This document shows, in pieces, positions 875 through 59,563 of a stretch of 64,000 nucleotides of DNA (position 1 is the stretch's first letter; each line of letters begins with the position of its first letter). Under the pieces are notes generated by a model. That model did not search any database. It was not told the DNA's origin and worked only from the letters and a program-made list of their open reading frames with translations. A program made the translations under genes and the position numbers. The stretch is from an uncultured Gammaproteobacteria bacterium (lineage in GTDB: Bacteria > Patescibacteriota > Microgenomatia > Levybacterales > UBA12049): NCBI GenBank assembly GCA_964474445.1, contig CAYYSJ010000005.1, positions 17,835 to 81,834 of the forward strand, given 5' to 3'.

Positions 875-2491
875 CTATTTTGATGCTGATAATTTTTCTA
901 TAAATTCATGTGCAACTGTTGGTGATGTGATAAGTGGTGCGTTATACCGGACCGCCATTTGTCTTGTGAATTGCCCATCTGTTTTTTCCTTGTTTGTTGT
1001 TATTTTCCCCGTTGGGATATTAATAATGACGTCAAACCGATTTGCTTCTAATAAGTCCTTGAGATTTGGTTTGAGATGAGGTTGCGACACTTTGTTCACT
1101 GCAACTGATTCGATGTGATGTGCTTTCAAGAATTTATGGGTTTTATACGTAGCATAGAGTCGGTATTTAAGGTCTGATAAGCGTTTAATATCTGGAAGCA
1201 TTTTTATTTTATTCTCTCTTTTTCCAATACTGACTAATGCCGTTCTTTCTGCTCGTTGTGCTAGTCTCATTTGCAGTGTATAGAGCTCAATAAACCCAGC
1301 TGAAGCATTTTGATTGAACGCAGTGCTTGCCATAAAGGTTGCAAGTTTTTCTTCAAAAATCGTATTAGGAGTTTCAAGAGCTATCATATGAACGTTTCCT
1401 TTATATAACTTAAGAGTAACTTTTCCTGTCACCTTCTTATTCACATTATCAACATATGCATTCAAATCGTCCATGAGAGGCTCGTACCATAATCCTCCGT
1501 AACATAAGTATGCCCATTTTGTATCAATCAGAGATTTGAATTCATTTTCTGCCCGTGTTGAAACATATGCTTCCAGTTGCTTGTGGGCAGTAACAATAAC
1601 TTCCGCAGCAGGGGCTTCAAAAATATCACGAATTTTTAGTCCAACTACCCTATCTTCAATATGAATATTAGTGCCAACACCATGCTTTGATCCTATGGTG
1701 TTTAATTTCATAATAAGATCTGCAAGTTTCATTTGTTGTCCATTGAGAGCAACAGGAAGACCTTTCACAAATTCAAGATCAACAATTTCTGATGTGTCTG
1801 GAGCTTCCTCTGGAAGTTTGTTGATTTGAAGAATTTTCTCAAGTGGAGCAACGAGTGCAGGATTTTCTATTTCTCCCCCTTCTCCTGAGATTCCCCACAT
1901 ATTGTCATCGTATGAATATGGCTTATCTTTTGTTTGGCTTACTGGAATACCGTGTTTTTTTGCGTAGTCTATTTCTTCATCTCTTCCCATATTCCACTCT
2001 CGTACTGGTGCAATAATTTTCATGTCAGGATTGAGAGCAAGAATCGTTCCCTCAATTCTCACCTGGTCATTCCCTTTGCCCGTGCATCCATGTGCAATAC
2101 AGTCTGCCCCTTCTTGCTCTGCAATTTTGACTGCCCATTTTGCGAGCAGTGGTCTTCCAAGAGGTGTTGCAAGACGATATTCTTGTTGATAAGAGGCATT
2201 TGCTTTGATTCCTTTTGCAATATACTCTTGTGCAAATTCATCTTTTGCATCGATAACAAATGCTTTCACAGCACCAAGTTTGAGTGCTTTTTTCTTGATG
2301 ACATCTAAATCATCTGCAATTTGACCAATATCAATAGTTAGTGCAATAACTTCTGCTTTGTATTCTTCATGAATCCATTTGAGCATGACTGATGTGTCCA
2401 GACCACCGGAATAGAGGAGAACAACTTTATTGACCTCACCTTTTCGGCCTTCGTAGGAGGAAACTTTTACGTATTCTGTTTTTTTCTTCAT
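875..2491 (-). CDS. argG: Argininosuccinate synthase with a C-terminal CarB-type MGS-like (allosteric) domain fusion
   Basis: N-terminal PP-loop VVLLYSGGLDTSV and ArgG-wide similarity over about 400 aa. The extra roughly 130 C-terminal residues (YRLYATYKTHKFLKAHHIESVAVNKVSQPHLKPNLKDLLEANRFDVIINIPTGK...RQMAVRYNAPLITS) match the MGS-like allosteric domain of the carbamoyl-phosphate synthase large subunit. Confidence 0.8.
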   Translation of the reverse strand: MKKKTEYVKVSSYEGRKGEVNKVVLLYSGGLDTSVMLKWIHEEYKAEVIALTIDIGQIADDLDVIKKKALKLGAVKAFVIDAKDEFAQEYIAKGIKANASYQQEYRLATPLGRPLLAKWAVKIAEQEGADCIAHGCTGKGNDQVRIEGTILALNPDMKIIAPVREWNMGRDEEIDYAKKHGIPVSQTKDKPYSYDDNMWGISGEGGEIENPALVAPLEKILQINKLPEEAPDTSEIVDLEFVKGLPVALNGQQMKLADLIMKLNTIGSKHGVGTNIHIEDRVVGLKIRDIFEAPAAEVIVTAHKQLEAYVSTRAENEFKSLIDTKWAYLCYGGLWYEPLMDDLNAYVDNVNKKVTGKVTLKLYKGNVHMIALETPNTIFEEKLATFMASTAFNQNASAGFIELYTLQMRLAQRAERTALVSIGKRENKIKMLPDIKRLSDLKYRLYATYKTHKFLKAHHIESVAVNKVSQPHLKPNLKDLLEANRFDVIINIPTGKITTNKEKTDGQFTRQMAVRYNAPLITSPTVAHEFIEKLSASK

Positions 2492-2677: not shown

Positions 2678-3535
2678 TTAATTTTTTAGAGATTTTTCAG
2701 TAGCAACGACTAAATTCTCCATGAGACACGCAACATTCACTGGTCCTACTCCTCCCGGGATTGGCGTATACCATCCTGCTTTGTCCTTTATATCTTCTTC
2801 ATCGTAATCTCCCACAAATGTTCCCTCTTCTGTCCTACTCAGACCAATCCCAACAAGAATTGCATCCTTTTTTATCATGTCAGAGGTAAGGACATGTGGC
2901 TTGCCAACAGCGGTGATAATGATATCTGCTTGTTGTGTGATTTCTGATGGGTGAGGAGTTTTTGAGTCAATAACAGTCACATCTTCTCCACGTTTTTTTA
3001 GGAGCTCTATAACAGGTAGTCCTCCAGTTTTTCCTTTCCCCATGACAACAATCTTTTTTGATGCAAGCCATTCATTGAAAGACTCTCCTGTTTTCTCTGT
3101 CTCTTTTATCATAGGGATTTCCAAAACTTTCATGACTGCATTTGCAATAGGGATAATAAATTGGGAATTCGGAACAAATCCGTCAACATCTTTGTTTGGA
3201 TGAATTTCTTTAATCAGTGCTTCATAGTCAATATGGGAAGGTACAGGGAGTTGAAGGATAAGACCGTGAACATCTGTTTTGTCTTGTAAAAATGCGATGC
3301 ACTCTTTAAGTGTTTGCTGGTTAACAGAGTCTGGAAAATTGTAAACAGAAACAACTGCGCCAATTTGTTTGGCCATTTTTTCTTTTTGTGCAATATATGA
3401 AGAAATTGCTGGATCCTCTCCTACTCGAATAACTGCCATGTGAGGTTGAACCTGAAAATCTTGATCAAGCTCATCAACACGATGTAAAAGGTCTGCAAGA
3501 ATATAATTTGAGATTGTCTTGCCGTCAATAATCAT
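2678..3535 (-). CDS. folD: Bifunctional methylenetetrahydrofolate dehydrogenase/cyclohydrolase
   Basis: Full-length similarity to FolD: GKTIS start and PIPGGVGPVNVACLMENL C-terminal motif. Confidence 0.85.
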   Translation of the reverse strand: MIIDGKTISNYILADLLHRVDELDQDFQVQPHMAVIRVGEDPAISSYIAQKEKMAKQIGAVVSVYNFPDSVNQQTLKECIAFLQDKTDVHGLILQLPVPSHIDYEALIKEIHPNKDVDGFVPNSQFIIPIANAVMKVLEIPMIKETEKTGESFNEWLASKKIVVMGKGKTGGLPVIELLKKRGEDVTVIDSKTPHPSEITQQADIIITAVGKPHVLTSDMIKKDAILVGIGLSRTEEGTFVGDYDEEDIKDKAGWYTPIPGGVGPVNVACLMENLVVATEKSLKN

Positions 3536-9459: not shown

Positions 9460-10002
9460 TTATTTGGAGAAGCCCTCTTCGTTGTATCGGGCGATACATT
9501 CGTGGACAATCTTTTTTGCTTCCTCTACATCTCCCCATCCCAGCACTTTAGTTGTGCCCGGCTTTTTGAGATCTTTGTAGTGGGCAAAATGGAATTCAAT
9601 TTTTTGTTTCCATCTTTTTGGCAGATCATCAAGCGAATTGATTGCATCTCCTGTATTTCGATCATCATCTGGAACACACACAATTTTGTAATCCATTTCT
9701 CCATCATCTTCAAAATTGAAAATGCCGATGATTTTTCCTTTTACAAATACTCCTGTTGGGATTGGTTCATGGCAGATCATTAACACATCTAATTCATCAC
9801 CATCTGTGTCTTTGGTTGCTGGAATGAAGCCGTAGTTTACTGGTTTTGGAAACACATCTGGTTCAACGCGGTCCAACATGAAGATGCCATGTTCACGGTC
9901 GTATTCGATTTTGAGTGAGGATCCTTGAGGAATATCAATAATAGTATTGACCATTCCATTATCAACATCACCTGGTGTAAGAATCTTATTAAAGTCTGGC
10001 AT
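9460..10002 (-). CDS. ppa: Inorganic pyrophosphatase (family I)
   Basis: DGDELDVLMI and a KIVCVPDDD-type Asp cluster. Size 180 aa. Confidence 0.9.
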   Translation of the reverse strand: MPDFNKILTPGDVDNGMVNTIIDIPQGSSLKIEYDREHGIFMLDRVEPDVFPKPVNYGFIPATKDTDGDELDVLMICHEPIPTGVFVKGKIIGIFNFEDDGEMDYKIVCVPDDDRNTGDAINSLDDLPKRWKQKIEFHFAHYKDLKKPGTTKVLGWGDVEEAKKIVHECIARYNEEGFSK

Positions 10003-34241: not shown

Positions 34242-34841
34242 ATGAAAACAAAAAAACGAGTAGGACACTCCTTTATCACACGTAATCATCATGCTGGTTT
34301 TACCATGGTAGAACTGTTAATTAGTATTGGTGTGTTAGCAATACTTGCTGTGTTTGCATTAGCTGCAGTAAACCCGATTGATCAATTTAAAAAAGCAAGA
34401 GACTCGCAGAGAAAATCTGATTTAGCACAACTGCAAAAAGTTTTGGAACAATACTATCAAGACTGGGGACACTATCCTCCCAATAGCAATGCGTATCAAC
34501 TTGAGGATGAGAGAGCAAATCCCTATACTATCATTCCGTGGGGAGGGTCTGGAGGATGGACTCCCTATATTGATCTTGTTCCAAAAGATCCTGATCCTGC
34601 TCGTACGTATATCTATTACTCAACAAATAGCGGCCAAAAATATTATGTATATACCTCTCTGGAAAGAGGACCGCTTGATCCGACAACATGTATGGCAACA
34701 AATGCGCAGTGTAAGGCAAATCCTACAAGCACATTCTGTAATTGTACAGGTGCAACGAGTTTAACAACGCCGACATTTTGTGGGGCAACAACACTCCTTC
34801 CTTGTAATTATGGTGCGACAAGTTCAAACACGACACCCTAA
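34242..34841 (+). CDS. Type IV pilin (GspG/PilA-like)
   Basis: HAG/FTMVELLISIGVLAILA prepilin motif. Confidence 0.75.
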   Translation: MKTKKRVGHSFITRNHHAGFTMVELLISIGVLAILAVFALAAVNPIDQFKKARDSQRKSDLAQLQKVLEQYYQDWGHYPPNSNAYQLEDERANPYTIIPWGGSGGWTPYIDLVPKDPDPARTYIYYSTNSGQKYYVYTSLERGPLDPTTCMATNAQCKANPTSTFCNCTGATSLTTPTFCGATTLLPCNYGATSSNTTP

Positions 34842-34859: not shown

Positions 34860-35387
34860 GTGACACTTTACTATAACAATATGAAGATAAAAAGAAAAAA
34901 CAGTATATACACTCGCTCACTCACGACGATACAACGAGGGTTTACTCTTGTTGAGCTGTTGATTGTTATTGCAATCATTGGCATTCTCTCAACACTGCTA
35001 ATGGCCAATTTTATCGGTATCAGACAACGAGCACGAGATGCGCAACGAAAATCTGATGTGCGACAAATCCAGTCAGCACTTGAGTTGTATAGAGCAGATA
35101 ATGGAAGTTACCCTGCACCGGCAGGGTCGAATGGGTTAACAACAAATTGCCCAAATCCAGCCGCCTTTACTGCAAACGGGACAACGTATATGGCTCAAAT
35201 CCCTTGTGATCCACTGGGAGCCTCTTTCTATCACTCAGGAAACTATTTTTATAAACTAACAACAGGTGGATATGAACTGGGTACATGTTTGGAAAATATA
35301 GCTGACAATGATTATTATTCTGGCAGTTTTGATGGAGCTGATAATTCTTGTACCACAGCACACTATTTTGTAAAAACAAACCCCTAA
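34860..35387 (+). CDS. Type IV pilin (GspG/PilE-like)
   Basis: QRG/FTLVELLIVIAIIGILS prepilin motif. Conserved NGSYP segment. Confidence 0.75.
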   Translation: MTLYYNNMKIKRKNSIYTRSLTTIQRGFTLVELLIVIAIIGILSTLLMANFIGIRQRARDAQRKSDVRQIQSALELYRADNGSYPAPAGSNGLTTNCPNPAAFTANGTTYMAQIPCDPLGASFYHSGNYFYKLTTGGYELGTCLENIADNDYYSGSFDGADNSCTTAHYFVKTNP

Positions 35388-39596: not shown

Positions 39597-40312
39597 GCGC
39601 ACTTAATCCAAAAGTTTCGTTAGACCAACTTGTTCTGAAAGCTCTGTACTATCGGTACAAGAACTTTCTTGTTCCTATGGGGACAATTGCAGTATGTGTT
39701 CTGTTGTTTCTGTTTATCATTATCCCCCAAATACAAGCATGGTTTGCCATGAAGGATGAAATATCAGTTGATACGCAAAAACTTCAAACGTTAAAACAAA
39801 ACCTGCAAACAATCTCCCGTCTTGATGATGGACAATTAGATACGTATTTAACAACAGCATCCAATGCCCTTCCAACAGACAAAGACTTTGGGAGCATCTT
39901 ACAAACATTGGCAGCTGCGGCAGCAACTGCAGGGACAAGTTTAGGAGACTATAACTTCCAAATAGGAGATTTAGTCAGTCCAGACACAAAAACTACTGGG
40001 GGTCAGATTCCTCTTGAATTATCGATTAATCTTAAGGGAGATGTCACAACAGGGAAACAATTTATCGATGCGTTGAAAGCACAGCTGCCTATTTCTGATG
40101 TGACATTAATGAATGTCAATGCAAACGGAACAATCAATATCACTCTTGTCTTCTATTATGCTCCACTGCCAAAGATTACGTTTGATGATTCTGTACCATT
40201 ACAAACGCTTTCTGCAAAGGATCAAGCTATGTTACAACTTCTTGCAACACCTCAGGTAACACCATTGATTACGCAGCCTCCTGCTACTACATCAGCAAAA
40301 CTTACTCAGTAG
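39593..40312 (+). CDS. pilO: PilO-like bitopic membrane protein
   Basis: Single TM, then coiled coil and a periplasmic domain. Position after pilM and pilN. Confidence 0.5.
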   Translation: MSALNPKVSLDQLVLKALYYRYKNFLVPMGTIAVCVLLFLFIIIPQIQAWFAMKDEISVDTQKLQTLKQNLQTISRLDDGQLDTYLTTASNALPTDKDFGSILQTLAAAAATAGTSLGDYNFQIGDLVSPDTKTTGGQIPLELSINLKGDVTTGKQFIDALKAQLPISDVTLMNVNANGTINITLVFYYAPLPKITFDDSVPLQTLSAKDQAMLQLLATPQVTPLITQPPATTSAKLTQ

Positions 40313-41000
40313 AGGTAAGATCGGGGCGATACTGTTTCGTTAGTTTTTTTGCTTCTTCTTTTTTCCACTCTTCTATTTTTTTATGATCTCCCGAAACGAG
40401 AATATCAGGTACTTTCATCCCTTTATATTCCCTTGGTGTTGTATATTGTGGGTATTCAAGGAGAATATTCCCTTCTTTATCGGTACTAAATGATTCATAA
40501 AACGTGGCGTCTTCTTTAAGAACTCCTGGGACAAGTCTACTCACTGCATCAGTAATAAGCATTGCAGGAATTTCTCCACCGGTGAGAACAAAGTCCCCTA
40601 TGGAAATTGTTTCATCAACCAGACTCCTCACCCGTTCATCAACGCCTTCATAATGAGCACACAAAAGAATAAGGTGTTTAAGCTCTGAGAATTCTTGTGC
40701 TTTTGCTTGTTTGAAGGTTTCTCCCCGTGGGTCCAAAAGGACTACTTTCTGTTCTTGGCTACTGAATGTGGGATCTTTTACTGCCTGTATTGTCTGATCA
40801 AGAATATCAACTTTCATGACCATTCCGACTCCCCCACCGTATGCCCTGTCATCCACAACTTTATGACGTCCAATACCAAAATCTCGAATATTAACAAAAT
40901 TTATTTCTAAAAGCCCTTTTTCTTGTGCTCTTTTCAGAATTGACTCTGAAAAAGGTCCCTCAAACATGTCAGGAAAAAGTGTCAAAATGGTGATTTTCAT
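40302..41000 (-). CDS. trmD: tRNA (guanine37-N1)-methyltransferase
   Basis: TrmD signature ITILTLFPDMF...RAYGGGVGMVMK. 232 aa. Confidence 0.9.
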   Translation of the reverse strand: MKITILTLFPDMFEGPFSESILKRAQEKGLLEINFVNIRDFGIGRHKVVDDRAYGGGVGMVMKVDILDQTIQAVKDPTFSSQEQKVVLLDPRGETFKQAKAQEFSELKHLILLCAHYEGVDERVRSLVDETISIGDFVLTGGEIPAMLITDAVSRLVPGVLKEDATFYESFSTDKEGNILLEYPQYTTPREYKGMKVPDILVSGDHKKIEEWKKEEAKKLTKQYRPDLTSTE

Positions 41001-46262: not shown

Positions 46263-47459
46263 TTATTCTTGTACTGTTACTTTTACAAACTTTCTCTTTC
46301 CTACTTTTACAACAACAGAATCTTCTATTGCAACCTCTTTTGCAGGATTTTCTTGCCTTTCCTCATCAATCATAACTCCTCCCTGCTCTACTAATCTCTT
46401 TGCTTCTGTTTTGCTGTTTGCAAGACCAAGTCTCACCAGTAAGTCTGCAAGTTGGAAAAGGTTCTCTGATGCGCTAACTGTAACAACAGGGATTTCATCT
46501 GGTATTTCCTTGTTCTGAACTGTCCTTTCAAAATATGCTGCTGCCTCTTGTGCTGCATCTTCACCATGGAATTCTTTAACTATCTCAAGAGCGAGTTCTT
46601 TCTTGATACGCATTGGATGCTCGCCTGATGCAAGACGTGTTTCAACGTCATAGACCTTTTCCATAGGGACACGGGTTCCCAGTTTGAAGTAATTGACAAT
46701 GAGGTCATCTTCAATAGCCATAACTTTTGCAAACATATCTCGTGGTTCTTCCTCAAGCCAAATTGCGTTTCCTCCAGTTTTGGACATTTTTTTGCCATCT
46801 GTCCCAATCAAGAATTCCATAGTCAGGACAAAAGAATCTTTGTTTCGCAAATCTTTTTGCAGTGTTCTTCCTGCTTGCATATTAAATGTTTGATCAGTAC
46901 CACCTATTTGAATATCAGTATCCAAAAAGTAACTGTCATATCCTTGCATAACAGGATACAATACTTCATGAAGACCTACCCGTTTATTTTCCTGTAATCG
47001 TTTTCTGATAAGTTCCCGTCCAACAAAATCTCCAACTGCGAAATGTTGCGTAAGTTTGACAATCTCTGTAAATGGTAGTTTGGATAACCATTCACTATTA
47101 TGGACAACTCGTACTTTAGAGAAATCAACAATTTTTTCTGCCTGCTTTTTATAGGTTTGAAAATTCTCATGAATTTGTTCAGAGGTAAGGACCGGTCTTT
47201 CAGAATCTTTATCTGATGTATCTCCGATAAGTGCGGTGAAGTCTCCAATAAGAAAGGTAACAGTGTGTCCTAATTCTGCAAATGCTTGTAGTTTTCGTAA
47301 AGGAACAGCATGACCTAAATGAATTTTTGTTGCGGTAGGATCAATGCCTAAATAGATATGTAATTTTTCTCCGGAATCTAAACGTTTTCTGAGTTCTTCT
47401 TTTCCAGGGATAATATTTGCTACACCTCGTGTGAGTACTTCTTCAATCTTGTCATTCAT
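46263..47459 (-). CDS. tyrS: Tyrosyl-tRNA synthetase
   Basis: HIGH-class motif (IHLGHAVPL), KMSKT motif (KMSKTGGNAIWL), C-terminal S4 domain. Confidence 0.9.
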   Translation of the reverse strand: MNDKIEEVLTRGVANIIPGKEELRKRLDSGEKLHIYLGIDPTATKIHLGHAVPLRKLQAFAELGHTVTFLIGDFTALIGDTSDKDSERPVLTSEQIHENFQTYKKQAEKIVDFSKVRVVHNSEWLSKLPFTEIVKLTQHFAVGDFVGRELIRKRLQENKRVGLHEVLYPVMQGYDSYFLDTDIQIGGTDQTFNMQAGRTLQKDLRNKDSFVLTMEFLIGTDGKKMSKTGGNAIWLEEEPRDMFAKVMAIEDDLIVNYFKLGTRVPMEKVYDVETRLASGEHPMRIKKELALEIVKEFHGEDAAQEAAAYFERTVQNKEIPDEIPVVTVSASENLFQLADLLVRLGLANSKTEAKRLVEQGGVMIDEERQENPAKEVAIEDSVVVKVGKRKFVKVTVQE

Positions 47460-52241: not shown

Positions 52242-54341
52242 TTATATAGTGGGTAACAAAAAACAAAAGGAGGTCTGTTTTTTCTGTTGATCACTTCTTC
52301 CCCAAATTTTTCCATTGTGTGCTTTGATAATTTCTGCTGCAATGTAGAGTCCTAATCCCATTCCAGGAACACGGAGTTTTTTAGGATTTGTACGAACAAA
52401 AGGTTTAAAGATGCTATCTAAATCTTTTTTATTGATACCAATTCCATAATCTTTGACACACACTTTTATATTATTTGTCTCTCTTGAAAGCATAATATCA
52501 ATTGAGGTTGCATCGGGAGAATATTTCACTGCGTTATTAACGAGATTGATAAGTACTCGGCGGATCTTCTCTTTATCTCCTAATACTTTTCCTTCAACTG
52601 TCCCTTTTATATGCACAGTATGAGTAAGTATTGTCGGTTTCATTTCACTAATAGTTTCTTTGACTAGCTTCCCAAGAGCAATCTGTCTTTTACGAATTTT
52701 TTCTTCGCTATATTTTATTTTTGTGATATCAAGCATGTCCTTTACTAAAGATGATAATCTGTTTGTTTGTTCGATAGACTGTGTTACGATGCGAGGCATA
52801 TTCTCATATTGATTATTTTTCAAAGAACGTTGTAATGCTGATAGGTACAAGGTCAGACTTGTTAATGGCGTTTTTAATTCATGACTGGCAATGCCAATAA
52901 ACTCCTCTTTTATCAACTCTTTTTGTTTTAGATCAGAAATATCTTGCACAATGTCTACAATATTTTGTAGTGTTTTTTTATACACAATCGGGAAGGACTT
53001 AATTCTTAACCATTGTGTTGTTTCATCATCCCAAGTTAAACACAAATCCTTTTCGTATACATGAGGATCCTGGAACATTTTTTCGTAGTGTAATTGCGTT
53101 GTGTCCATCTGCCTTCCCTCTTCGTCAGTGACAAAAAGTAGGTTTCTTTTCCCTGACAAGGAAGTTTCTTGTTTTCCGTCAGAAAACAGATATACTCTTT
53201 TTGCTTCATTGTTCATAAAAAGAATCTTTCCCCTTGCGTCCCGAATAATAATCCCCTCCCCGACCTTAAGAAGAATTCTTTCTAAATCTTGTTTGGATTG
53301 ATACAATTTTTCTCTGGAAATAACTCTATCCAGTGCTTGTGCACATTGTCCAGCAAGCATAAGAATCACTTGTTTATCAAAATCTGTAAAGTTTTGGGGT
53401 GTCCGAAAGTAAAAATTAATACTCCCAAATACTTTTTCTTTTACTTTTAACGGGAGAAACGAGAGAGATGATAAACCTGTAGCATGGATAATTTCGTTCA
53501 GTGTCTTAAATTTTTTATCTATCGAATGTACATTGGTAATAAATAGTGGTTGTTTTTTTTGAATAACTACGTTGGTAAGATAGGTATCTTTAGCACGGTA
53601 CGTTGTTGGCCACGTATCAACAAGTTTTTTAGGATAACCAATCTGGGTAATAACGTCATAGGTATTTGTTTTTTCGTCAAAGATAACAACCTCTCCAACT
53701 TGAGCGTCTATCATATTAAACCCTTCTTTCACCATAATTTCGCCAACCTTTTCTTTCGTAGATGCATAAGACAAAAGTGAGGTAATCTTTTGCAATCCCA
53801 CAATCTTTTTCACAATATTTTCATATTTGGGTATTTCCGAAAACTCGACGGATTGTTTTTCTATGACATTGAGCATTTGATCAGCAAAAGCCAATGCTAT
53901 CTCTTTTGTAAACAAAGAAAACCGTTTCACAGGGAGAAAGAAAAAACATATGTATTCAGCAGTATTTTTACGAATTCTCATAACAATACATGTTTCGGGG
54001 GTGTTTTGAAGATAGGTGTGTAACTGAGGTATGGCTTTCCAGAATGAAAGATCTTCTACAAAAAGAACCTCTTGAGAGGAGAAAAGTTGTTCAAAAAGCA
54101 CATACTCAGCGTTAAGCGCGTGAGTAACGTATTCCATTGTTTGCTTATTCTTCCCAATGTGCGTTAGAAGTTTAAGCGGTGAACCAATCTCTTTCTTCCA
54201 TATAGCCGCTGCTTGTGCTCCGAGGAGAGAACTTCCTAATGTTACGACGATTTCTGAAAGTTGATTCAAAGAAGTAGCATGAGCTAATGCAATAGAAACC
54301 TGTGAAAATTTTGCCAATTGTTCTTGAGCACGTCCGTTCAT
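52242..54341 (-). CDS. Cytoplasmic sensor histidine kinase (GAF - GAF - PAS - HisKA - HATPase_c)
   Basis: H-box IGIASHELKTPLTS, N-box NLVNNAVKYS, G-boxes DYGIGI and GMGLGLYIA. No TM. No adjacent response regulator. Confidence 0.8.
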   Translation of the reverse strand: MNGRAQEQLAKFSQVSIALAHATSLNQLSEIVVTLGSSLLGAQAAAIWKKEIGSPLKLLTHIGKNKQTMEYVTHALNAEYVLFEQLFSSQEVLFVEDLSFWKAIPQLHTYLQNTPETCIVMRIRKNTAEYICFFFLPVKRFSLFTKEIALAFADQMLNVIEKQSVEFSEIPKYENIVKKIVGLQKITSLLSYASTKEKVGEIMVKEGFNMIDAQVGEVVIFDEKTNTYDVITQIGYPKKLVDTWPTTYRAKDTYLTNVVIQKKQPLFITNVHSIDKKFKTLNEIIHATGLSSLSFLPLKVKEKVFGSINFYFRTPQNFTDFDKQVILMLAGQCAQALDRVISREKLYQSKQDLERILLKVGEGIIIRDARGKILFMNNEAKRVYLFSDGKQETSLSGKRNLLFVTDEEGRQMDTTQLHYEKMFQDPHVYEKDLCLTWDDETTQWLRIKSFPIVYKKTLQNIVDIVQDISDLKQKELIKEEFIGIASHELKTPLTSLTLYLSALQRSLKNNQYENMPRIVTQSIEQTNRLSSLVKDMLDITKIKYSEEKIRKRQIALGKLVKETISEMKPTILTHTVHIKGTVEGKVLGDKEKIRRVLINLVNNAVKYSPDATSIDIMLSRETNNIKVCVKDYGIGINKKDLDSIFKPFVRTNPKKLRVPGMGLGLYIAAEIIKAHNGKIWGRSDQQKKQTSFCFLLPTI

Positions 54342-54410
54342 AACAAGATAACCTACTTTGATTTTTCTTTACTGTGTCTCTATACTAAAATTATATCAGT
54401 AATCTTGCTA

Positions 54411-55142
54411 ATGAAATCAATAAGAAATCCTTATAGCAAAAGCTTCTCTAACTTTTACGACATCTATGCGAACGAAGATTTCTCGAAAGTCACTCAACTT
54501 GTCAATTCACTGTTAGATACACACAATCCAGATGGGAAAACGCTACTTGAGTTAGGATGTGGAACAGGAAAGATTCTGGAAAGCATTTCGAAACGATATA
54601 CCTTTGAAGGTCTTGATATTTCTCAACATATGCTTGCAATTGCAAAAAAGAAATTCCCAAAAGCACGGTTTTATCTCAAAGACATGACAAATTTTTCCAT
54701 TCATAAAAAATTTGATGCTATTATTTGCTTTTCAGATGCTATTAATCATCTGCATACATTTTCGGAATGGAGGAAAACGTTTCAAAGAGTTTCTACCCAT
54801 CTGAGGAAAGGAGGCATCTTTATTTTTGATATGAATACCCAGGTACGATTGGAAAGGCTCTCTCATATGACGCGTTATGTGAGTCCGCTTTTACAGAATC
54901 AGTTTTTTACTGTGAAAGTGTCTCACGTAAAAGATACGATGTATAGCTTTTCTATTCAACTATTCACAATGGAAAAAAACGCTATTTCGCTTCATGAAGA
55001 CGTTATTATGGAAAGCTCTTTTCCCATACAAAAAGTAAAGAAATCTTTGGAAGGACACTTTACCATTAAGGACATGTTAGATGTAGTGCGACCGAAAGTA
55101 AGCAAAAAAACAGGAAAGGTAGTCTTTATTTGCAAAAAATAA
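54411..55142 (+). CDS. Class I SAM-dependent methyltransferase (start refined to ATG 54411)
   Basis: Motif I LLELGCGTGK. Acidic motif II LKDM. Confidence 0.7.
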   Translation: MKSIRNPYSKSFSNFYDIYANEDFSKVTQLVNSLLDTHNPDGKTLLELGCGTGKILESISKRYTFEGLDISQHMLAIAKKKFPKARFYLKDMTNFSIHKKFDAIICFSDAINHLHTFSEWRKTFQRVSTHLRKGGIFIFDMNTQVRLERLSHMTRYVSPLLQNQFFTVKVSHVKDTMYSFSIQLFTMEKNAISLHEDVIMESSFPIQKVKKSLEGHFTIKDMLDVVRPKVSKKTGKVVFICKK

Positions 55143-55480
55143 TATTGCCTAAGTTCTACTCTTCCCTGCTGTTTATTTATTTTTATAGGGCGCCGAGTGG
55201 GCCCCCGCCTAATCTGATCATATACTTTTATATAAACCCTTTTCCATCTGGAATGCAATAAGCCGAGTTTAGGATGTTATAAGGTGATTTGTGCGTATCT
55301 ATTACCATGGTGCTTCATTTTAGAGAAATGTAAAGGTAGTTTTCGTAACATGTCGTCACTTGGCAGATTCAATTTTTTTTGTATTTTCCTCTAGAAGCTT
55401 GTTTATGGGACACTTTATATCTTGAATCTAGAATTTTAATTAGTAAATGGATCAGAATGAAGATAAATAAATGGAGAATC

Positions 55481-55524
55481 TTGCTCTCTGATGTTCAGAT
55501 GCTTCGAACGTATTTTATAGAAAC
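55481..55524 (+). repeat. 44-nt direct repeat copy R1 (TTGCTCYCTGAYGTTCASAYRCTTCGAACGTATTTTMTWGAAAY)
   Basis: ttgctctctgatgttcagatgcttcgaacgtattttatagaaac. It lies 37 nt past the 3' end of the minus-strand gene 55561..56244. Confidence 0.7.
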
Positions 55525-55560
55525 TAATAGAGAATCTTACACAATTGTATTTAAGCTTCC

Positions 55561-56244
55561 TTAAAGTCTATCACGAAGTACTCTTAAATTATCTAGAAAA
55601 CGATCTCGCAGAAGCCGATTTTTTTTCATTAAATCTTCTCGTTGTTCAACATTTATTTTTGCCTCATGCAAATCCAGTATCATCAATTGCCATGAACCGT
55701 TAGGATGGACAAGAAGTTCAAAAGCATCATCACCGTCTGGAAGCTGAATGCCATTTGTTGTTGCAATGTCTACACACCTGTTTACTTGGTCTTCAATTAA
55801 GCGTATTTGACGTGATCCAACAATTTTTTTGAACAAAGGATCTATGTTAGTTCTTCTTCTGGGAGATGGGTCATCTTCCCTAAAGCCTAACACTATACTT
55901 AGAGCCAAACCCTTACCATAAGTTTCACTTCCATCGGCCTTAACATCGGTAACAAAAACTGTACCTTCATCTGTTTCTCGAACTGTATCTACTACTGGTA
56001 ACCCAACTCTCTTAAGCTCTACCCAATTTGCGAAATATAAACCCTTTCTTCGTCGCTTATCTATATCTGTACCAAATGATCTTTCGATTAGATGTACCTC
56101 TCTTCCTTTAGGGAACCTAACATTTGCCTTTACTCTAAATTTTGGCTCTACTCCTCCACCCGTAAACTTAATTGCTTCTGTAATGTAAAGGGTGTGTATA
56201 CGTTGACCTGAACCAGGAATTGCATCAACTACTCTCTCTGTCAT
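55561..56244 (-). CDS. Hypothetical protein (227 aa)
   Basis: Intact ORF flanked by repeat copies R1 and R2. No domain recognised. Confidence 0.4.
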   Translation of the reverse strand: MTERVVDAIPGSGQRIHTLYITEAIKFTGGGVEPKFRVKANVRFPKGREVHLIERSFGTDIDKRRRKGLYFANWVELKRVGLPVVDTVRETDEGTVFVTDVKADGSETYGKGLALSIVLGFREDDPSPRRRTNIDPLFKKIVGSRQIRLIEDQVNRCVDIATTNGIQLPDGDDAFELLVHPNGSWQLMILDLHEAKINVEQREDLMKKNRLLRDRFLDNLRVLRDRL

Positions 56245-56291
56245 GAGGTAATTTTATATTAAGAAGCGTTAAAAGTCAAACTATAGGTTTA

Positions 56292-56335
56292 TTGCTCCCT
56301 GATGTTCAGATACTTCGAACGTATTTTATTGAAAC
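56292..56335 (+). repeat. 44-nt direct repeat copy R2
   Basis: ttgctccctgatgttcagatacttcgaacgtattttattgaaac. It lies 33 nt past the purN stop. Confidence 0.7.
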
Positions 56336-56367
56336 AGAGGAAAATTTTATATCTACCCTTACCTAAA

Positions 56368-56979
56368 TTACTTAATAGCAATTTTGTCTAAATCAATTTC
56401 TCCAGTACTAATTTTTTGCAATATTTCAGAAAAAAACTTATGTTCCTCTGCAAGAACTCTCTCTGCTAATGATTTCGGAGTATCATTTTCTAAAACGGGT
56501 ACTTCACTCTGGGCAACTATTTCGCCTTCATCATAATTTTCATTTACAAGATGAATTGTTACTCCTGAAACTTTTTCTTTTGCTTCAATAACTGCGTCAT
56601 GAACAAATTGTCCATACATTCCCTTGCCACCAAATTTTGGGAGTAACGCTGGATGTATATTAAGAATACGATTTTTATAATAGGTCAGTGTTTTATGCCC
56701 AAGCATTCGCATGTATCCTGCAAGAACTATTATATTCACATGATATTTTTGTAGGGTTTGCAGTATCACTTCATCTAAGTCTTCTGGATTTGTTTTACCA
56801 CTCAAGTGAAAAGCTGGTACTCCTTCTTTTCGTGCTCTTTCTAAAGCCAAAGAATCATTATTGTTACTGATTACAACGCATGGAGTCCCATCAAGCTTTC
56901 CCTCTTTACAGGCCTCAATAATTGCTTGCATATTTGACCCACCATGAGAGGCAAGAAACCCTACATTAAGATGAGACAT
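56368..56979 (-). CDS. purN: Phosphoribosylglycinamide formyltransferase (PurN-like)
   Basis: Formyl_trans_N motifs NIHPALLP, the His-containing VLAGYMRML, and TIHLVNENYDEGEIVAQ. 203 aa. Confidence 0.8.
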   Translation of the reverse strand: MSHLNVGFLASHGGSNMQAIIEACKEGKLDGTPCVVISNNNDSLALERARKEGVPAFHLSGKTNPEDLDEVILQTLQKYHVNIIVLAGYMRMLGHKTLTYYKNRILNIHPALLPKFGGKGMYGQFVHDAVIEAKEKVSGVTIHLVNENYDEGEIVAQSEVPVLENDTPKSLAERVLAEEHKFFSEILQKISTGEIDLDKIAIK

Positions 56980-57040
56980 AAACAGCTAGATTATAACAGA
57001 AGTTCGAAGATTCAACCTGATCTGAGGCTAATAAAGACCG

Positions 57041-57084
57041 TTGTTCCCTGACGTTCACACACTTCGAACGTATTTTCTAGAAAT
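57041..57084 (+). repeat. 44-nt direct repeat copy R3
   Basis: ttgttccctgacgttcacacacttcgaacgtattttctagaaat. It lies about 165 nt past the stop of gene 57248..57868. Confidence 0.65.
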
Positions 57085-57247
57085 TGAGGAGAAGTTTGAA
57101 CCTGTTACTACTATGAAGCGTATCCCTCTTGTAGTTGTCTTGTTGTTACTATCTGGACTGCTTCCTCCTTAAGGTGCTGCTTTTTCTGCTACTTTGATAT
57201 ATTTTTTAAAATAGGGACCATGCAAGCTATTCCTCGTAGATATGCTA

Positions 57248-57868
57248 TTAACCTTGTTTATGGAGAAGAGGATAAAATTTATCGAACAGTCTTCGTAAAG
57301 GATTTACTGCTCTATACGTTTGTCTAAACGCGGTTGCATCAATAATATATGGTTCCCCCCTTAATTCTCTTGTTTTAGGATTATAAGTATCTGCTAACAT
57401 GGCATCTGCTCCACCATTTTGCATGTATCCCCAGGAAGCCATCATTGTAATTTTTCTCTTATATGGGTTTCTTCTGGATCTGATCTGTCCTTTATCAACA
57501 TATGTTCTTGTTTCGCCTGGTTGAGGCTTCCTTTGCCCTCGTTTTAGAGAATATGTCACAGTCATTTCTGTAGGATCAATAATGTATTGTTCTCCTCCTG
57601 GGTTAGTTACAATACCATCCCCTCGCTTTGCAATATCTGTTGTTTCAAGCCTTCCATCAGTAAATCGTGTAGTGATTTGTTCTTGACCTCTTGCAATTGT
57701 AATTTGTACTTTTCCCACTTTTCGATATCTTGGAGCTCTGCGAAGACTTCGCATGATTTTAGGATTATGCCTATCTACTTCTAAAACTTGTTCTGCTTCT
57801 CTGTTGGTCATATAATTAATACTATAATACCGCAAATTTGCTAGTTTGTCAAAGATATGGGGCAACAT
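57248..57868 (-). CDS. Hypothetical protein (206 aa)
   Basis: Intact ORF. Basic, Gly/Arg-rich. No recognised domain. Confidence 0.4.
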   Translation of the reverse strand: MLPHIFDKLANLRYYSINYMTNREAEQVLEVDRHNPKIMRSLRRAPRYRKVGKVQITIARGQEQITTRFTDGRLETTDIAKRGDGIVTNPGGEQYIIDPTEMTVTYSLKRGQRKPQPGETRTYVDKGQIRSRRNPYKRKITMMASWGYMQNGGADAMLADTYNPKTRELRGEPYIIDATAFRQTYRAVNPLRRLFDKFYPLLHKQG

Positions 57869-58042
57869 GCATTAGATGAAACAAGATGTTAATGCATGCG
57901 TAAACGATAACGCCCATTTTCTATGGGTTTATACAAGCGTTCGGATGGTTAAAGAAGTTAGTATGGCTCCTATTAAGGAATAGAAGCAGATGAACAGGCT
58001 GGTACCTTGATTAGATTTGTCCTGTAGTGTATAATTTCAGAT

Positions 58043-59563
58043 GTGAATAAAGAAGCATTTGCAAGGTGGATTTCTTTTGAAGGCAGACCTTCTATGACTG
58101 CTGATCAGGTTGCGAAAATCCCTACTCCAAGACATGTTATTCGAACACGAACGCTTGCTCGTGAAGTGAGCAAAGCAAATAGTGTTCCCTATACAGAAGC
58201 ACTACATGAAATTATGGTACGCCAGAAAGGAAGAGCTGACGGCTTTTTCCCTCGAATACGTATTCTTGAACCCTTTGGTGAGCGAGTTGCGTATGTAGGA
58301 GATATTCATGGAGGAAATGATGCATTTTATAAGCGTCTAGAGAGAATGGCAGACAATCCTCCAGATTTACTTATTCTCAGTGGAGATATTGCAGGCTCAC
58401 TTGACTATGAAGAGTTACAACGGCGTTTTTATAACACCTTGGTAAATCATACCAAGCCTTTTCTCAAGGAAAATCCCTCTGATGAAGAGTTATTAAGCTA
58501 CCGAGATGTTGTGGGAGAGGATCCCCTCACCCATCAAAAAGTGCATACAGATACGATGAAAGAAGGATTCTTAGGTCTTCGAAAAAAAGAACTTTCAGTT
58601 GCAGGGAAGAGTCCAGAAGAGATTGAAAGCATGATGCAAAGTCTTGACGATGCAACAATTGCCTCAGAAATAAGAAGGTATAGCAAGTACGTTCATTTTG
58701 GCCATTATGTATCCAATTTGCCAGAGGAAGTTGTTAAAAACTTAGTTGCGCAGTTAGATGAGGGGGTACAAACTTTTGTAAATGCAGTAAGACCACTTCA
58801 TGAGAAAGGGACACAAATAATTATCAATCGGGGGAATTGGGACAGTGCTACACCAACTGATTTTGAGAGAGGAACAGAAAAGCCGGTAAGACTTCCTGAA
58901 AATGAGAGACCTTTTAGAGTGTGGGATGCCATCCATGCAAAAGATGCAGCACTTACCATGATAGATGGCCCTGTTTCTGTTGAAAGATCAAAACGATCTC
59001 GGTCTCTGCATGTTGTTGTTCCTTTTGATTCCTTGGTTGGTCTTGTGGGAAAGGATGGACAAGTAAGAGAGGATGATTTGCAAAATAAATTTGGGGAATT
59101 GAAACAAAAAGTTGATCGTGCGCGAAAAAAAGGAAAAGCAGTGATTCTTGTTACTCACGGGCAGCCAGATTGGGAGATGCATTACCTCAATTACCGCAGT
59201 CAACCAGAAGAAAAACGTCCACAACCAAATGCTGAAAATAAAGCAGTTATTGCTGGAACGAAACGATTAGTTGCATACGTCGGTCCTGACGAACTTGTTT
59301 ATGGACATATGCATGAGCAAAAGGATGAGAATGGAGACGACATTGCTCCTCATGTACGATATGTATTACAAGTTACAAAAGATGGAAGATCTGTAGATGT
59401 TGTGCAAAGTCCTGAGGAATTTAGTAAGGGGGATGTTGTTGCTTCTTTAACTCCTCTTCAGGAGATAGCAAGAAGCTATATCCCAGCAAAAAGAAGATTA
59501 CGAGGCATATCGTTGAACGGAAAAAACAAAGGAAGAAAAGCTGCAATTATAGAAAGAGAGTAG
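58043..59563 (+). CDS. Calcineurin-like metallophosphoesterase-domain protein
   Basis: VAYVGDIHGG, LLILSGDIAG and NRGNWD (GNH[DE]-like) metallophosphatase motifs. Confidence 0.6.
   Translation: MNKEAFARWISFEGRPSMTADQVAKIPTPRHVIRTRTLAREVSKANSVPYTEALHEIMVRQKGRADGFFPRIRILEPFGERVAYVGDIHGGNDAFYKRLERMADNPPDLLILSGDIAGSLDYEELQRRFYNTLVNHTKPFLKENPSDEELLSYRDVVGEDPLTHQKVHTDTMKEGFLGLRKKELSVAGKSPEEIESMMQSLDDATIASEIRRYSKYVHFGHYVSNLPEEVVKNLVAQLDEGVQTFVNAVRPLHEKGTQIIINRGNWDSATPTDFERGTEKPVRLPENERPFRVWDAIHAKDAALTMIDGPVSVERSKRSRSLHVVVPFDSLVGLVGKDGQVREDDLQNKFGELKQKVDRARKKGKAVILVTHGQPDWEMHYLNYRSQPEEKRPQPNAENKAVIAGTKRLVAYVGPDELVYGHMHEQKDENGDDIAPHVRYVLQVTKDGRSVDVVQSPEEFSKGDVVASLTPLQEIARSYIPAKRRLRGISLNGKNKGRKAAIIERE

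Follow-up and report, generated by a model that had tools for sequence, protein, structure and literature searches.

A conserved 45-bp box upstream of purN and a kinase-like gene is a candidate shared regulatory element in an uncultured bacterium

The locus described here lies in a 64-kb window (the whole stretch of DNA that was analyzed, 64,000 nucleotides) and comprises three minus-strand genes, coding for a PGDYG-family protein, phosphoribosylglycinamide formyltransferase (PurN), and a kinase-like protein, together with three copies of a repeat (Table 1). A match to TIGR00639 at 176 bits, above the cutoff of 150.1, identifies the predicted product of 56979-56368 as a true PurN. The gene is solitary, as had been stated in the first-pass annotation of this DNA, with no other pur gene in the 64-kb window. 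The two other proteins had been described there as unrecognizable, which no longer holds, since one belongs to the PGDYG family (PF14083) and the other is kinase-like by fold. The PGDYG reading frame of 206 aa is too long: because the TTGACA-17-TATTAT promoter (57852-57824) falls inside the 206-aa ORF and homologues are about 160 to 190 aa long, we place its start at the ATG at 57811. The AF2 model of the PGDYG protein is confident (pLDDT 89) and has no significant match in the PDB. The 227-aa kinase-like protein has no family match in Pfam, NCBIfam, PHROGs, or PADLOC; with an AF2 model of pLDDT 86, its best Foldseek matches are Bud32, WaaP, RIO2, and other kinases (E values of 4e-4 to 1e-3, TM scores of about 0.4 to 0.5), and the model thus points to a minimal protein-kinase-like fold. 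An adjacent metallophosphoesterase of 506 aa has no homologue at all.

Apart from this locus, the window carries ordinary chromosomal genes: argG, folD (2678-3535), gyrA/B, ppa, type IV pilus genes, rnc, trmD, recG, tyrS, aromatic amino acid genes, and the genes for PBP1A, PheT, and two histidine kinases. Of the 57 candidate genes with products of 120 aa or more, 55 were covered by Pfam scans, the exceptions being the short pilin-cluster ORFs at 34242-34841 and 34860-35387, and among the scanned genes there was no integrase, recombinase, transposase, or LysR-type regulator. There is no GC island or anomaly in the window. The locus was present in four sequencing runs (Logan contigs) with the same gene order; because these contigs are identical in sequence and stem from a single run series, they are uninformative on strain variation.

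Table 1. Genes, predicted promoters, and repeat copies at the purN locus (window coordinates)
Feature	Position	Strand	Description
Noncoding gap	55143-55480		338 nt; downstream of box copy 1
Box copy 1	55481-55537 (core, 55481-55525)	-	Orphan; no ORF after it
Kinase-like gene	55561-56244	-	227 aa; predicted minimal protein-kinase-like fold (Bud32/WaaP/RIO-like)
Kinase-like gene promoter (predicted)	56251-56279	-	TTGACT-17-TAAAAT, then 6 nt to ATG (leaderless)
Box copy 2	56292-56348 (core, 56292-56336)	-	Upstream of kinase-like gene
purN	56368-56979	-	Phosphoribosylglycinamide formyltransferase; TIGR00639 and PF00551
purN promoter (predicted)	56990-57015	-	Extended -10 cTGtTATAAT/TGtTATAAT (56998-56990), 10 nt to ATG
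Box copy 3	57041-57097 (core, 57041-57085)	-	Upstream of purN
PGDYG-family gene	57248-57811	-	PF14083; 187 aa from ATG at 57811
PGDYG gene promoter (predicted)	57852-57824	-	TTGACA-17-TATTAT, then 12 nt to ATG

A repeat search found three direct copies of 57 nt with 81 to 82% identity to copy 2, spaced 811 and 749 nt apart. Together with a consensus match, this bears out the three same-orientation copies and the spacing reported in the first-pass annotation. Its estimate of about 90% identity is roughly right for the 44-mer on which it was based, for which the pairwise identities counted from the sequences are 82 to 93%. The 36 nt at the start of its consensus recur without a mismatch in all three copies and at no other site in the window; in 100 shuffles the number of consensus matches expected by chance was 0.00. 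A 15-mer, CTTCGAACGTATTTT, is invariant across the three copies, and an 8-mer, CTTCGAAC, occurs four times in the 64-kb window, each time at the repeat locus. With a 45-nt position matrix, no weaker copies were detected in the 64 kb: the copies score 65 to 67 bits and the next-best site 2.3 bits, against up to 5.6 bits in shuffled sequence. On the gene strand, the repeat reads as an asymmetric block about 45 bp long, AAAATACGTTCGAAG-N5-TGAAC-N-C-N-GRGARYAA, referred to here as the box. It contains a dyad, GTTC-N9-GAAC (56304-56320 in copy 2 and 57053-57069 in copy 3), that embeds a T-N11-A motif, and it has little internal symmetry otherwise, with no dyad beyond this 4- to 6-bp arm pair. Similarity among the copies ends sharply at the borders of the box, and the 15-mer core inside it is unchanged, a pattern that argues for selection on the box rather than a recent duplication of the whole spacer. 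Each copy does lie 3' of the stop codon of a minus-strand gene, as had been noted before, at 24, 20, and 151 nt from the 57-nt repeat for copies 1, 2, and 3, respectively. The 338-nt gap that follows copy 1 contains no convincing ORF, Rfam match, or fold signal.

Across all candidate genes of the window, a TATAAT-like hexamer stands 6 to 12 nt before the ATG of many genes and Shine-Dalgarno sequences are few, so that the genome appears from its sequence to be largely leaderless. This arrangement pins the promoters, which are consensus predictions throughout, to the start codons and places the box upstream of them. The distance from the end of copy 2 to the -35 hexamer of the kinase-like gene is 12 nt. 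For purN, the -35-like TTGAAT at 57015-57010 is poorly spaced, with a spacer of just 14 nt, and the fourth CTTCGAAC lies within this spacer (57002-57009, minus strand). The box spans about -48 to -92 relative to the kinase-like gene and -62 to -106 relative to purN. Copy 1 is the exception in that it is followed by no gene and only by a weak TTCATT-17-TAAAAT (55461-55433), while copies 2 and 3 are both oriented toward a promoter. The PGDYG gene has its own promoter and no copy of the box upstream, and the divergent gene at 58043 is preceded by TTGATT-17-TATAAT, with 7 nt to its GTG.

The box is conserved in a second organism. A scan of metagenomes recovered it, as TTATTCCCCGTTGTTCATGCACTTCGAACGTATTTTATGAAAAC, on two overlapping soil contigs, L012 and L013, which are 100% identical over 1,929 nt and count as one independent locus outside the window (n = 1). 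BLASTN aligns L013 with copy 2 over 74 nt (78% identity, E value of 4e-9), and the alignment extends through a spacer of 12 to 13 nt and the -35 hexamer (TAAACCTATAGT-TTGACT in the window, TAGTCCTGTAGTATTGATT in L013); by our own count, about 37 of the 46 positions outside the search pattern agree. No L013 protein matches any window protein, and the box is all that the two share. On L013 the box sits between two diverging gene starts, with no gene end adjoining it. In the orientation seen in the window it is followed, after 13 nt, by TTGATT-17-TATGAT, and on its other side about 37 nt separate it from TTGACA-17-TATAAT-9-ATG of a 101-aa gene. The L013 copy is thus oriented toward a promoter like copies 2 and 3, and the distance from box end to -10 hexamer is 35 nt for copy 2, 36 nt for L013, and 45 nt for copy 3, that is, the copies differ by one helical turn. 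The dyad is centered at about -68, -69, and -78, respectively, relative to the ATG or transcription start site. L007, where the nearest homologue of the kinase-like protein (42% identity) is encoded, carries CCTGTAGTATTGACT before the gene start and shares with L013 a 13-mer, CCTGTAGTATTGA, at an equal position relative to the -35 hexamer, while the distal core of the box is absent there. More distant homologues, whether of the kinase-like or of the PGDYG protein, are encoded at loci without the box. A scan of GTDB genomes with GTTCANNNNCTTCGAACGTATTTT gave a single match, in coding-looking sequence of a Saprospiraceae MAG, which we attribute to chance, about this number being expected.

The explanation that best fits these observations, and to which we give roughly an even chance, is that the repeat is a cis-regulatory, protein-binding box shared by promoters and coregulating purN and the kinase-like gene. 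Among the possibilities raised in the first-pass annotation was a shared operator placed 50 to 110 nt upstream of the next gene, and this is the one that agrees best with the regular distance between box end and -10 hexamer. The box would act as DNA on the minus strand, that of the genes, from a position immediately before sigma-70-type promoters giving rise to leaderless mRNAs. A sequence-specific DNA-binding protein, presumably encoded outside the window, would occupy it and contact RNA polymerase at the adjacent promoter, always from the same face of the helix; both purN and the kinase-like gene might then answer to one signal. Activation seems the more plausible outcome of such contact, although repression is conceivable. 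A protein-binding role is suggested by the sharp borders of the box, its invariant core amid diverged flanks, its fixed orientation, and its helical-phase-consistent spacing, as well as by its conservation in a second organism beside unrelated genes and the lack of an RNA or coding signal. Further support comes from the presence of three copies against a chance expectation of none, with weaker copies absent from the rest of the 64 kb, from the confinement of CTTCGAAC to the locus with one of its four occurrences inside the purN promoter spacer, and from the CCTGTAGTATTGA segment that L007 and L013 share near the -35 hexamer. Several observations count against this explanation. Copy 1 has neither a gene nor a good promoter after it; in the window alone, "behind a gene" describes three of three copies and "before a gene" two of three; on L013, unless the target is a tiny ORF of 11 codons, the gene downstream of the box must have a leader of about 150 nt; and a 45-bp box with little symmetry exceeds the typical length of a single operator. 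Neither the window nor the neighborhood of the L013 copy yielded a regulator gene.

The position of the window copies behind genes is shared ground for two other readings. In the first, which the first-pass annotation had raised from the pattern of genes with 3' sites, the locus would be a cassette array, integron-like or built by other site-specific recombination, with the repeats as its attC-type sites. Its gene-repeat-gene-repeat geometry, single orientation, and unrelated cargo genes do resemble integron attC arrays, including attC clusters that lack an integrase. We nevertheless find this reading scarcely credible. No integrase or recombinase was detected in the 64 kb by the Pfam scans, and pairs of RYYYAAC and GTTRRRY at 40 to 130 nt from each other number zero on either strand of 55400-57300 and two in the whole window; the first-pass annotation had itself noted the lack of intI and attI and of an evident GTTRRRY core. 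Unlike attC sites, the repeats have no R''/R' cores and no hairpin or other palindromic structure, with fold energies on both strands no better than those of shuffled sequences (z scores of +0.2 to +2.2). The cargo genes have their own promoters directly before the ATG, whereas the ORFs of attC cassettes are mostly promoterless. There is no GC anomaly, gene order is unchanged in the four runs that hold the locus, and the L013 copy, between diverging starts, is 5' of genes rather than 3' of one. The second reading, that the box acts as RNA, serving as a processing, stability, or termination signal in a PGDYG-purN-kinase cotranscript or at the 3' ends of genes, is quite improbable. It would account for the occurrence of every window copy after a stop codon, and a plus-strand hairpin is possible (ACGUUC-N9-GAACGU followed by AUUUU, the variable position pairing as U-G or C-G). 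That hairpin is weak, however, with 5 to 6 AU-rich pairs and a 9-nt loop, and it and the U run are on the strand opposite to the genes; the fold energies just given tell against structure on either strand; each gene has its own promoter; and Rfam 15 gave no match at gathering score in the window and none at E values up to 5 in 55100-58100. The shared 3'-UTR or terminator-like element that had also been suggested fails because the box on L013 lies 5' of genes and behind none, and because no terminator-like site overlaps any of the repeats. A coding role is very improbable as well. Small peptides could be read from TTG codons on the plus strand of the boxes (M-L/F-S/P-D-V-Q/H-x-L-R-T-Y-F-I/L-E-...), the translations LLSDVQMLRTYFIET, LLPDVQILRTYFIET, and LFPDVHTLRTYFLEI are alike, with some of the nucleotide differences synonymous, and a GGAG precedes the TTG of copy 1 by 4 nt. 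Copies 2 and 3, in contrast, have no ribosome-binding site, the peptide tails differ in length and sequence, and gene callers predicted nothing at the boxes on the Logan contigs. On L013, TTA replaces TTG, and after the upstream stop codon no in-frame ATG, GTG, or TTG occurs until past the conserved part. Across the four sequences, variable sites fall at codon positions 1, 2, and 3 in 5, 3, and 7 cases, without a clear excess at the third position.

Closer to the protein-binding explanation is the possibility of promoter reuse: a module of upstream promoter DNA would have been duplicated in front of or beside unrelated genes and moved between organisms, and the similarity would reflect common descent rather than a dedicated regulator. 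Nijveen, Matus-Garcia, and van Passel (2012; PMC3575422) describe such a phenomenon, with highly similar, homologous promoter regions before nonhomologous genes, both within a genome and across organisms, some of them shared between taxa. The locus is like those cases in that similar upstream DNA precedes nonhomologous genes: the box is found before purN, before the kinase-like gene, and before an unrelated gene on L013. The 74 nt that copy 2 has in common with L013 take in the -35 hexamer, yet the flanking proteins are unrelated; on this view, copy 1, an orphan, is a remnant. It differs from the reuse described there in that the core promoter is common to copy 2 and L013 alone. Copies 1 and 3 have the distal box in common but not the promoter, which is easier to reconcile with a conserved binding site than with the copying of a whole promoter, and the survival of the 15-mer core, intact in all four sequences amid fully diverged flanks, points to continued selection on the box itself. 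We consider promoter reuse as the whole explanation unlikely, if worth keeping in view; it overlaps with the regulatory box, since one concerns origin and the other function. As for a mobile repeat, there are no mobile-element genes or terminal repeats, and nothing was found in phage, plasmid, or viral collections. The copies of the box are three, clustered and in the same orientation, in 64 kb, and a REP-like motif ubiquitous between genes, which would have spoken against a special array, is not seen within the window. BLASTN against phages and plasmids returned only E values of 0.4 or more. The 15-mer had 36 matches on viral contigs, including one (L024) that seemed similar at first; these matches are ascribed to chance because the scores of their flanks do not stand out.

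Little is known about how uncultured bacteria with small genomes regulate their genes, and a 45-bp box with sharp borders, conserved in two organisms, offers a handle on both a regulator and its regulon, since it could be used as bait in a pull-down or as a pattern for whole-genome searches. If regulation through the box is real, it would show why a lone purN is kept, under common control with a mini-kinase. The false lead of an integron-like cassette system at the locus is removed. On a broader and doubtful view, the box and the -35-proximal segment might serve as operator in a stress regulon specific to the lineage, the stress perhaps being DNA damage or nucleotide supply. Such a regulon would wire the solitary PurN and the Bud32-like mini-kinase to a single regulator in a bacterium with mostly leaderless transcripts, and the module, a portable unit of promoter and operator, would have passed between unrelated organisms.

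The box was compared with known regulatory sites. The Gram-positive-type LexA (Cheo) box is GAAC-N4-GTTC. The box described here is like it in having CGAAC followed by four bases, and homologues of the kinase-like protein often lie near DNA repair genes. It is unlike it in the second half, which reads TTTA or TTTC instead of GTTC and matches at two or three of the four bases. Since the partner half-site is TTTA or TTTC, the LexA palindrome is missing, and a LexA/SOS box was rejected, the CGAAC half-site being all that agrees. None of the CodY, PurR, sigma-54, ECF, and LytTR patterns fits in a by-eye comparison with consensus sequences. The closest parallel in layout is the nod box, a sequence of about 47 bp that precedes several nod operons and to which NodD binds; within it, ATC-N9-GAT, the T-N11-A signature of LysR-type transcriptional regulators (LTTRs), is centered near -65. 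Like nod box and other LTTR promoters, our locus has an element of about 45 bp in several copies before unrelated genes, in a fixed orientation upstream of the -35 hexamer, with an N9-spaced dyad, GTTC-N9-GAAC, that embeds T-N11-A and is centered at about -68/-69 or -78. Unlike LTTR systems, neither the window nor the surroundings of the L013 copy contain an LTTR or other regulator gene, and the sequence of the box is unrelated to that of the nod box. The resemblance is one of geometry only, and we treat it as an analogy rather than as membership of this class.

When neighborhoods were searched for a regulator, the genes neighboring the box and those neighboring homologues of the kinase-like gene proved to have no family in common, and none of them matches the window. 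Around the homologues themselves, DNA repair genes were present in four of the six distinct loci examined, which we regard as a lead and not as a result: the repair neighbors are a umuD-like gene with a Y-family polymerase gene (L010), radA (L008), Ku (L053), and uvrABC (L057).

The 8-mer CTTCGAAC recurs at the purN promoter, where its fourth copy (57002-57009, minus strand) is located between the -35-like and -10 elements, in the orientation opposite to that of the boxes (the three copies of the repeat); no occurrence beyond these four copies was found in the window. An identical 13-mer, CCTGTAGTATTGA, was seen at positions 451-463 of L013, a soil-metagenome contig carrying the box between two diverging gene starts, and at 1066-1078 of L007, the locus of the closest homolog of the kinase-like gene; these two sequences were reached by different retrieval routes. 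The 13-mer extends into TTGA, the first four bases of the -35 hexamer, and its counterpart at the same place in the window is CCTATAGTTTGA. In L013, the box is directly adjoined by a strong 12-bp hairpin (375-410; AGGAAGG...CUUUCCU; fold z, -2.5), of which the window has no counterpart. A family among the viral contigs retrieved with the box 15-mer (L018, L021, L026, L028, L046, and L050) has TAGAATGTTCATGTGATATTCCTTCGAACGTATTTT in common; this sequence probably belongs to phage coding DNA that is conserved and, except for the 15-mer, unrelated to the box.

Across the whole window, most genes carry a TATAAT-like hexamer 6 to 12 nt 5' of the start codon and are not preceded by a Shine-Dalgarno sequence; judged from these start regions, leaderless mRNAs appear to be the main mRNA type of the organism.

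Structure prediction indicates that the 227-amino-acid protein encoded beside the boxes has a minimal kinase-like fold. Its homologs are rare, and DNA repair genes are found nearby in four of the six distinct homolog loci examined: umuD-like and Y-family polymerase genes (L010), radA (L008), Ku (L053), and uvrABC (L057). The PGDYG open reading frame was called too long at its 5' end, and its start is likely the ATG at 57811; the protein is all-beta, and its confident AF2 model (pLDDT, 89) had no significant match in the PDB. A search of 5.8 billion proteins with the metallophosphoesterase returned only itself and no other homolog.

Features of the window
Feature	Position	Strand	Remark
Kinase-like gene, 227 aa	55561-56244	-	Predicted Bud32/WaaP/RIO-type fold
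PGDYG ORF	57248-57868	-	
Calcineurin-like metallophosphoesterase, 506 aa	58043-59563	+	
SAM-dependent methyltransferase	54318-55142	+	PADLOC model mad2, E 9e-18
Argininosuccinate synthase + C-terminal MGS-like domain	875-2491	-	Domain fusion
Prephenate dehydrogenase + prephenate dehydratase segment	47778-48824	-	Domain fusion
Example gene	2678-3535		TATAAT-like hexamer, no Shine-Dalgarno
Example gene	9460-10002		As above
Example gene	40302-41000		As above
Example gene	46263-47459		As above

Downstream of the orphan box copy (copy 1) is a gap of 338 nt (55143-55480), unusually long for this otherwise compact genome, in which no open reading frame, RNA family match, or fold signal was found; it may be what is left of a decayed gene, or it may yield a transcript that is not annotated. 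The mad2 match of the methyltransferase probably reflects a generic methyltransferase domain only. The TTG start of this gene overlaps the start of a divergent histidine kinase gene.
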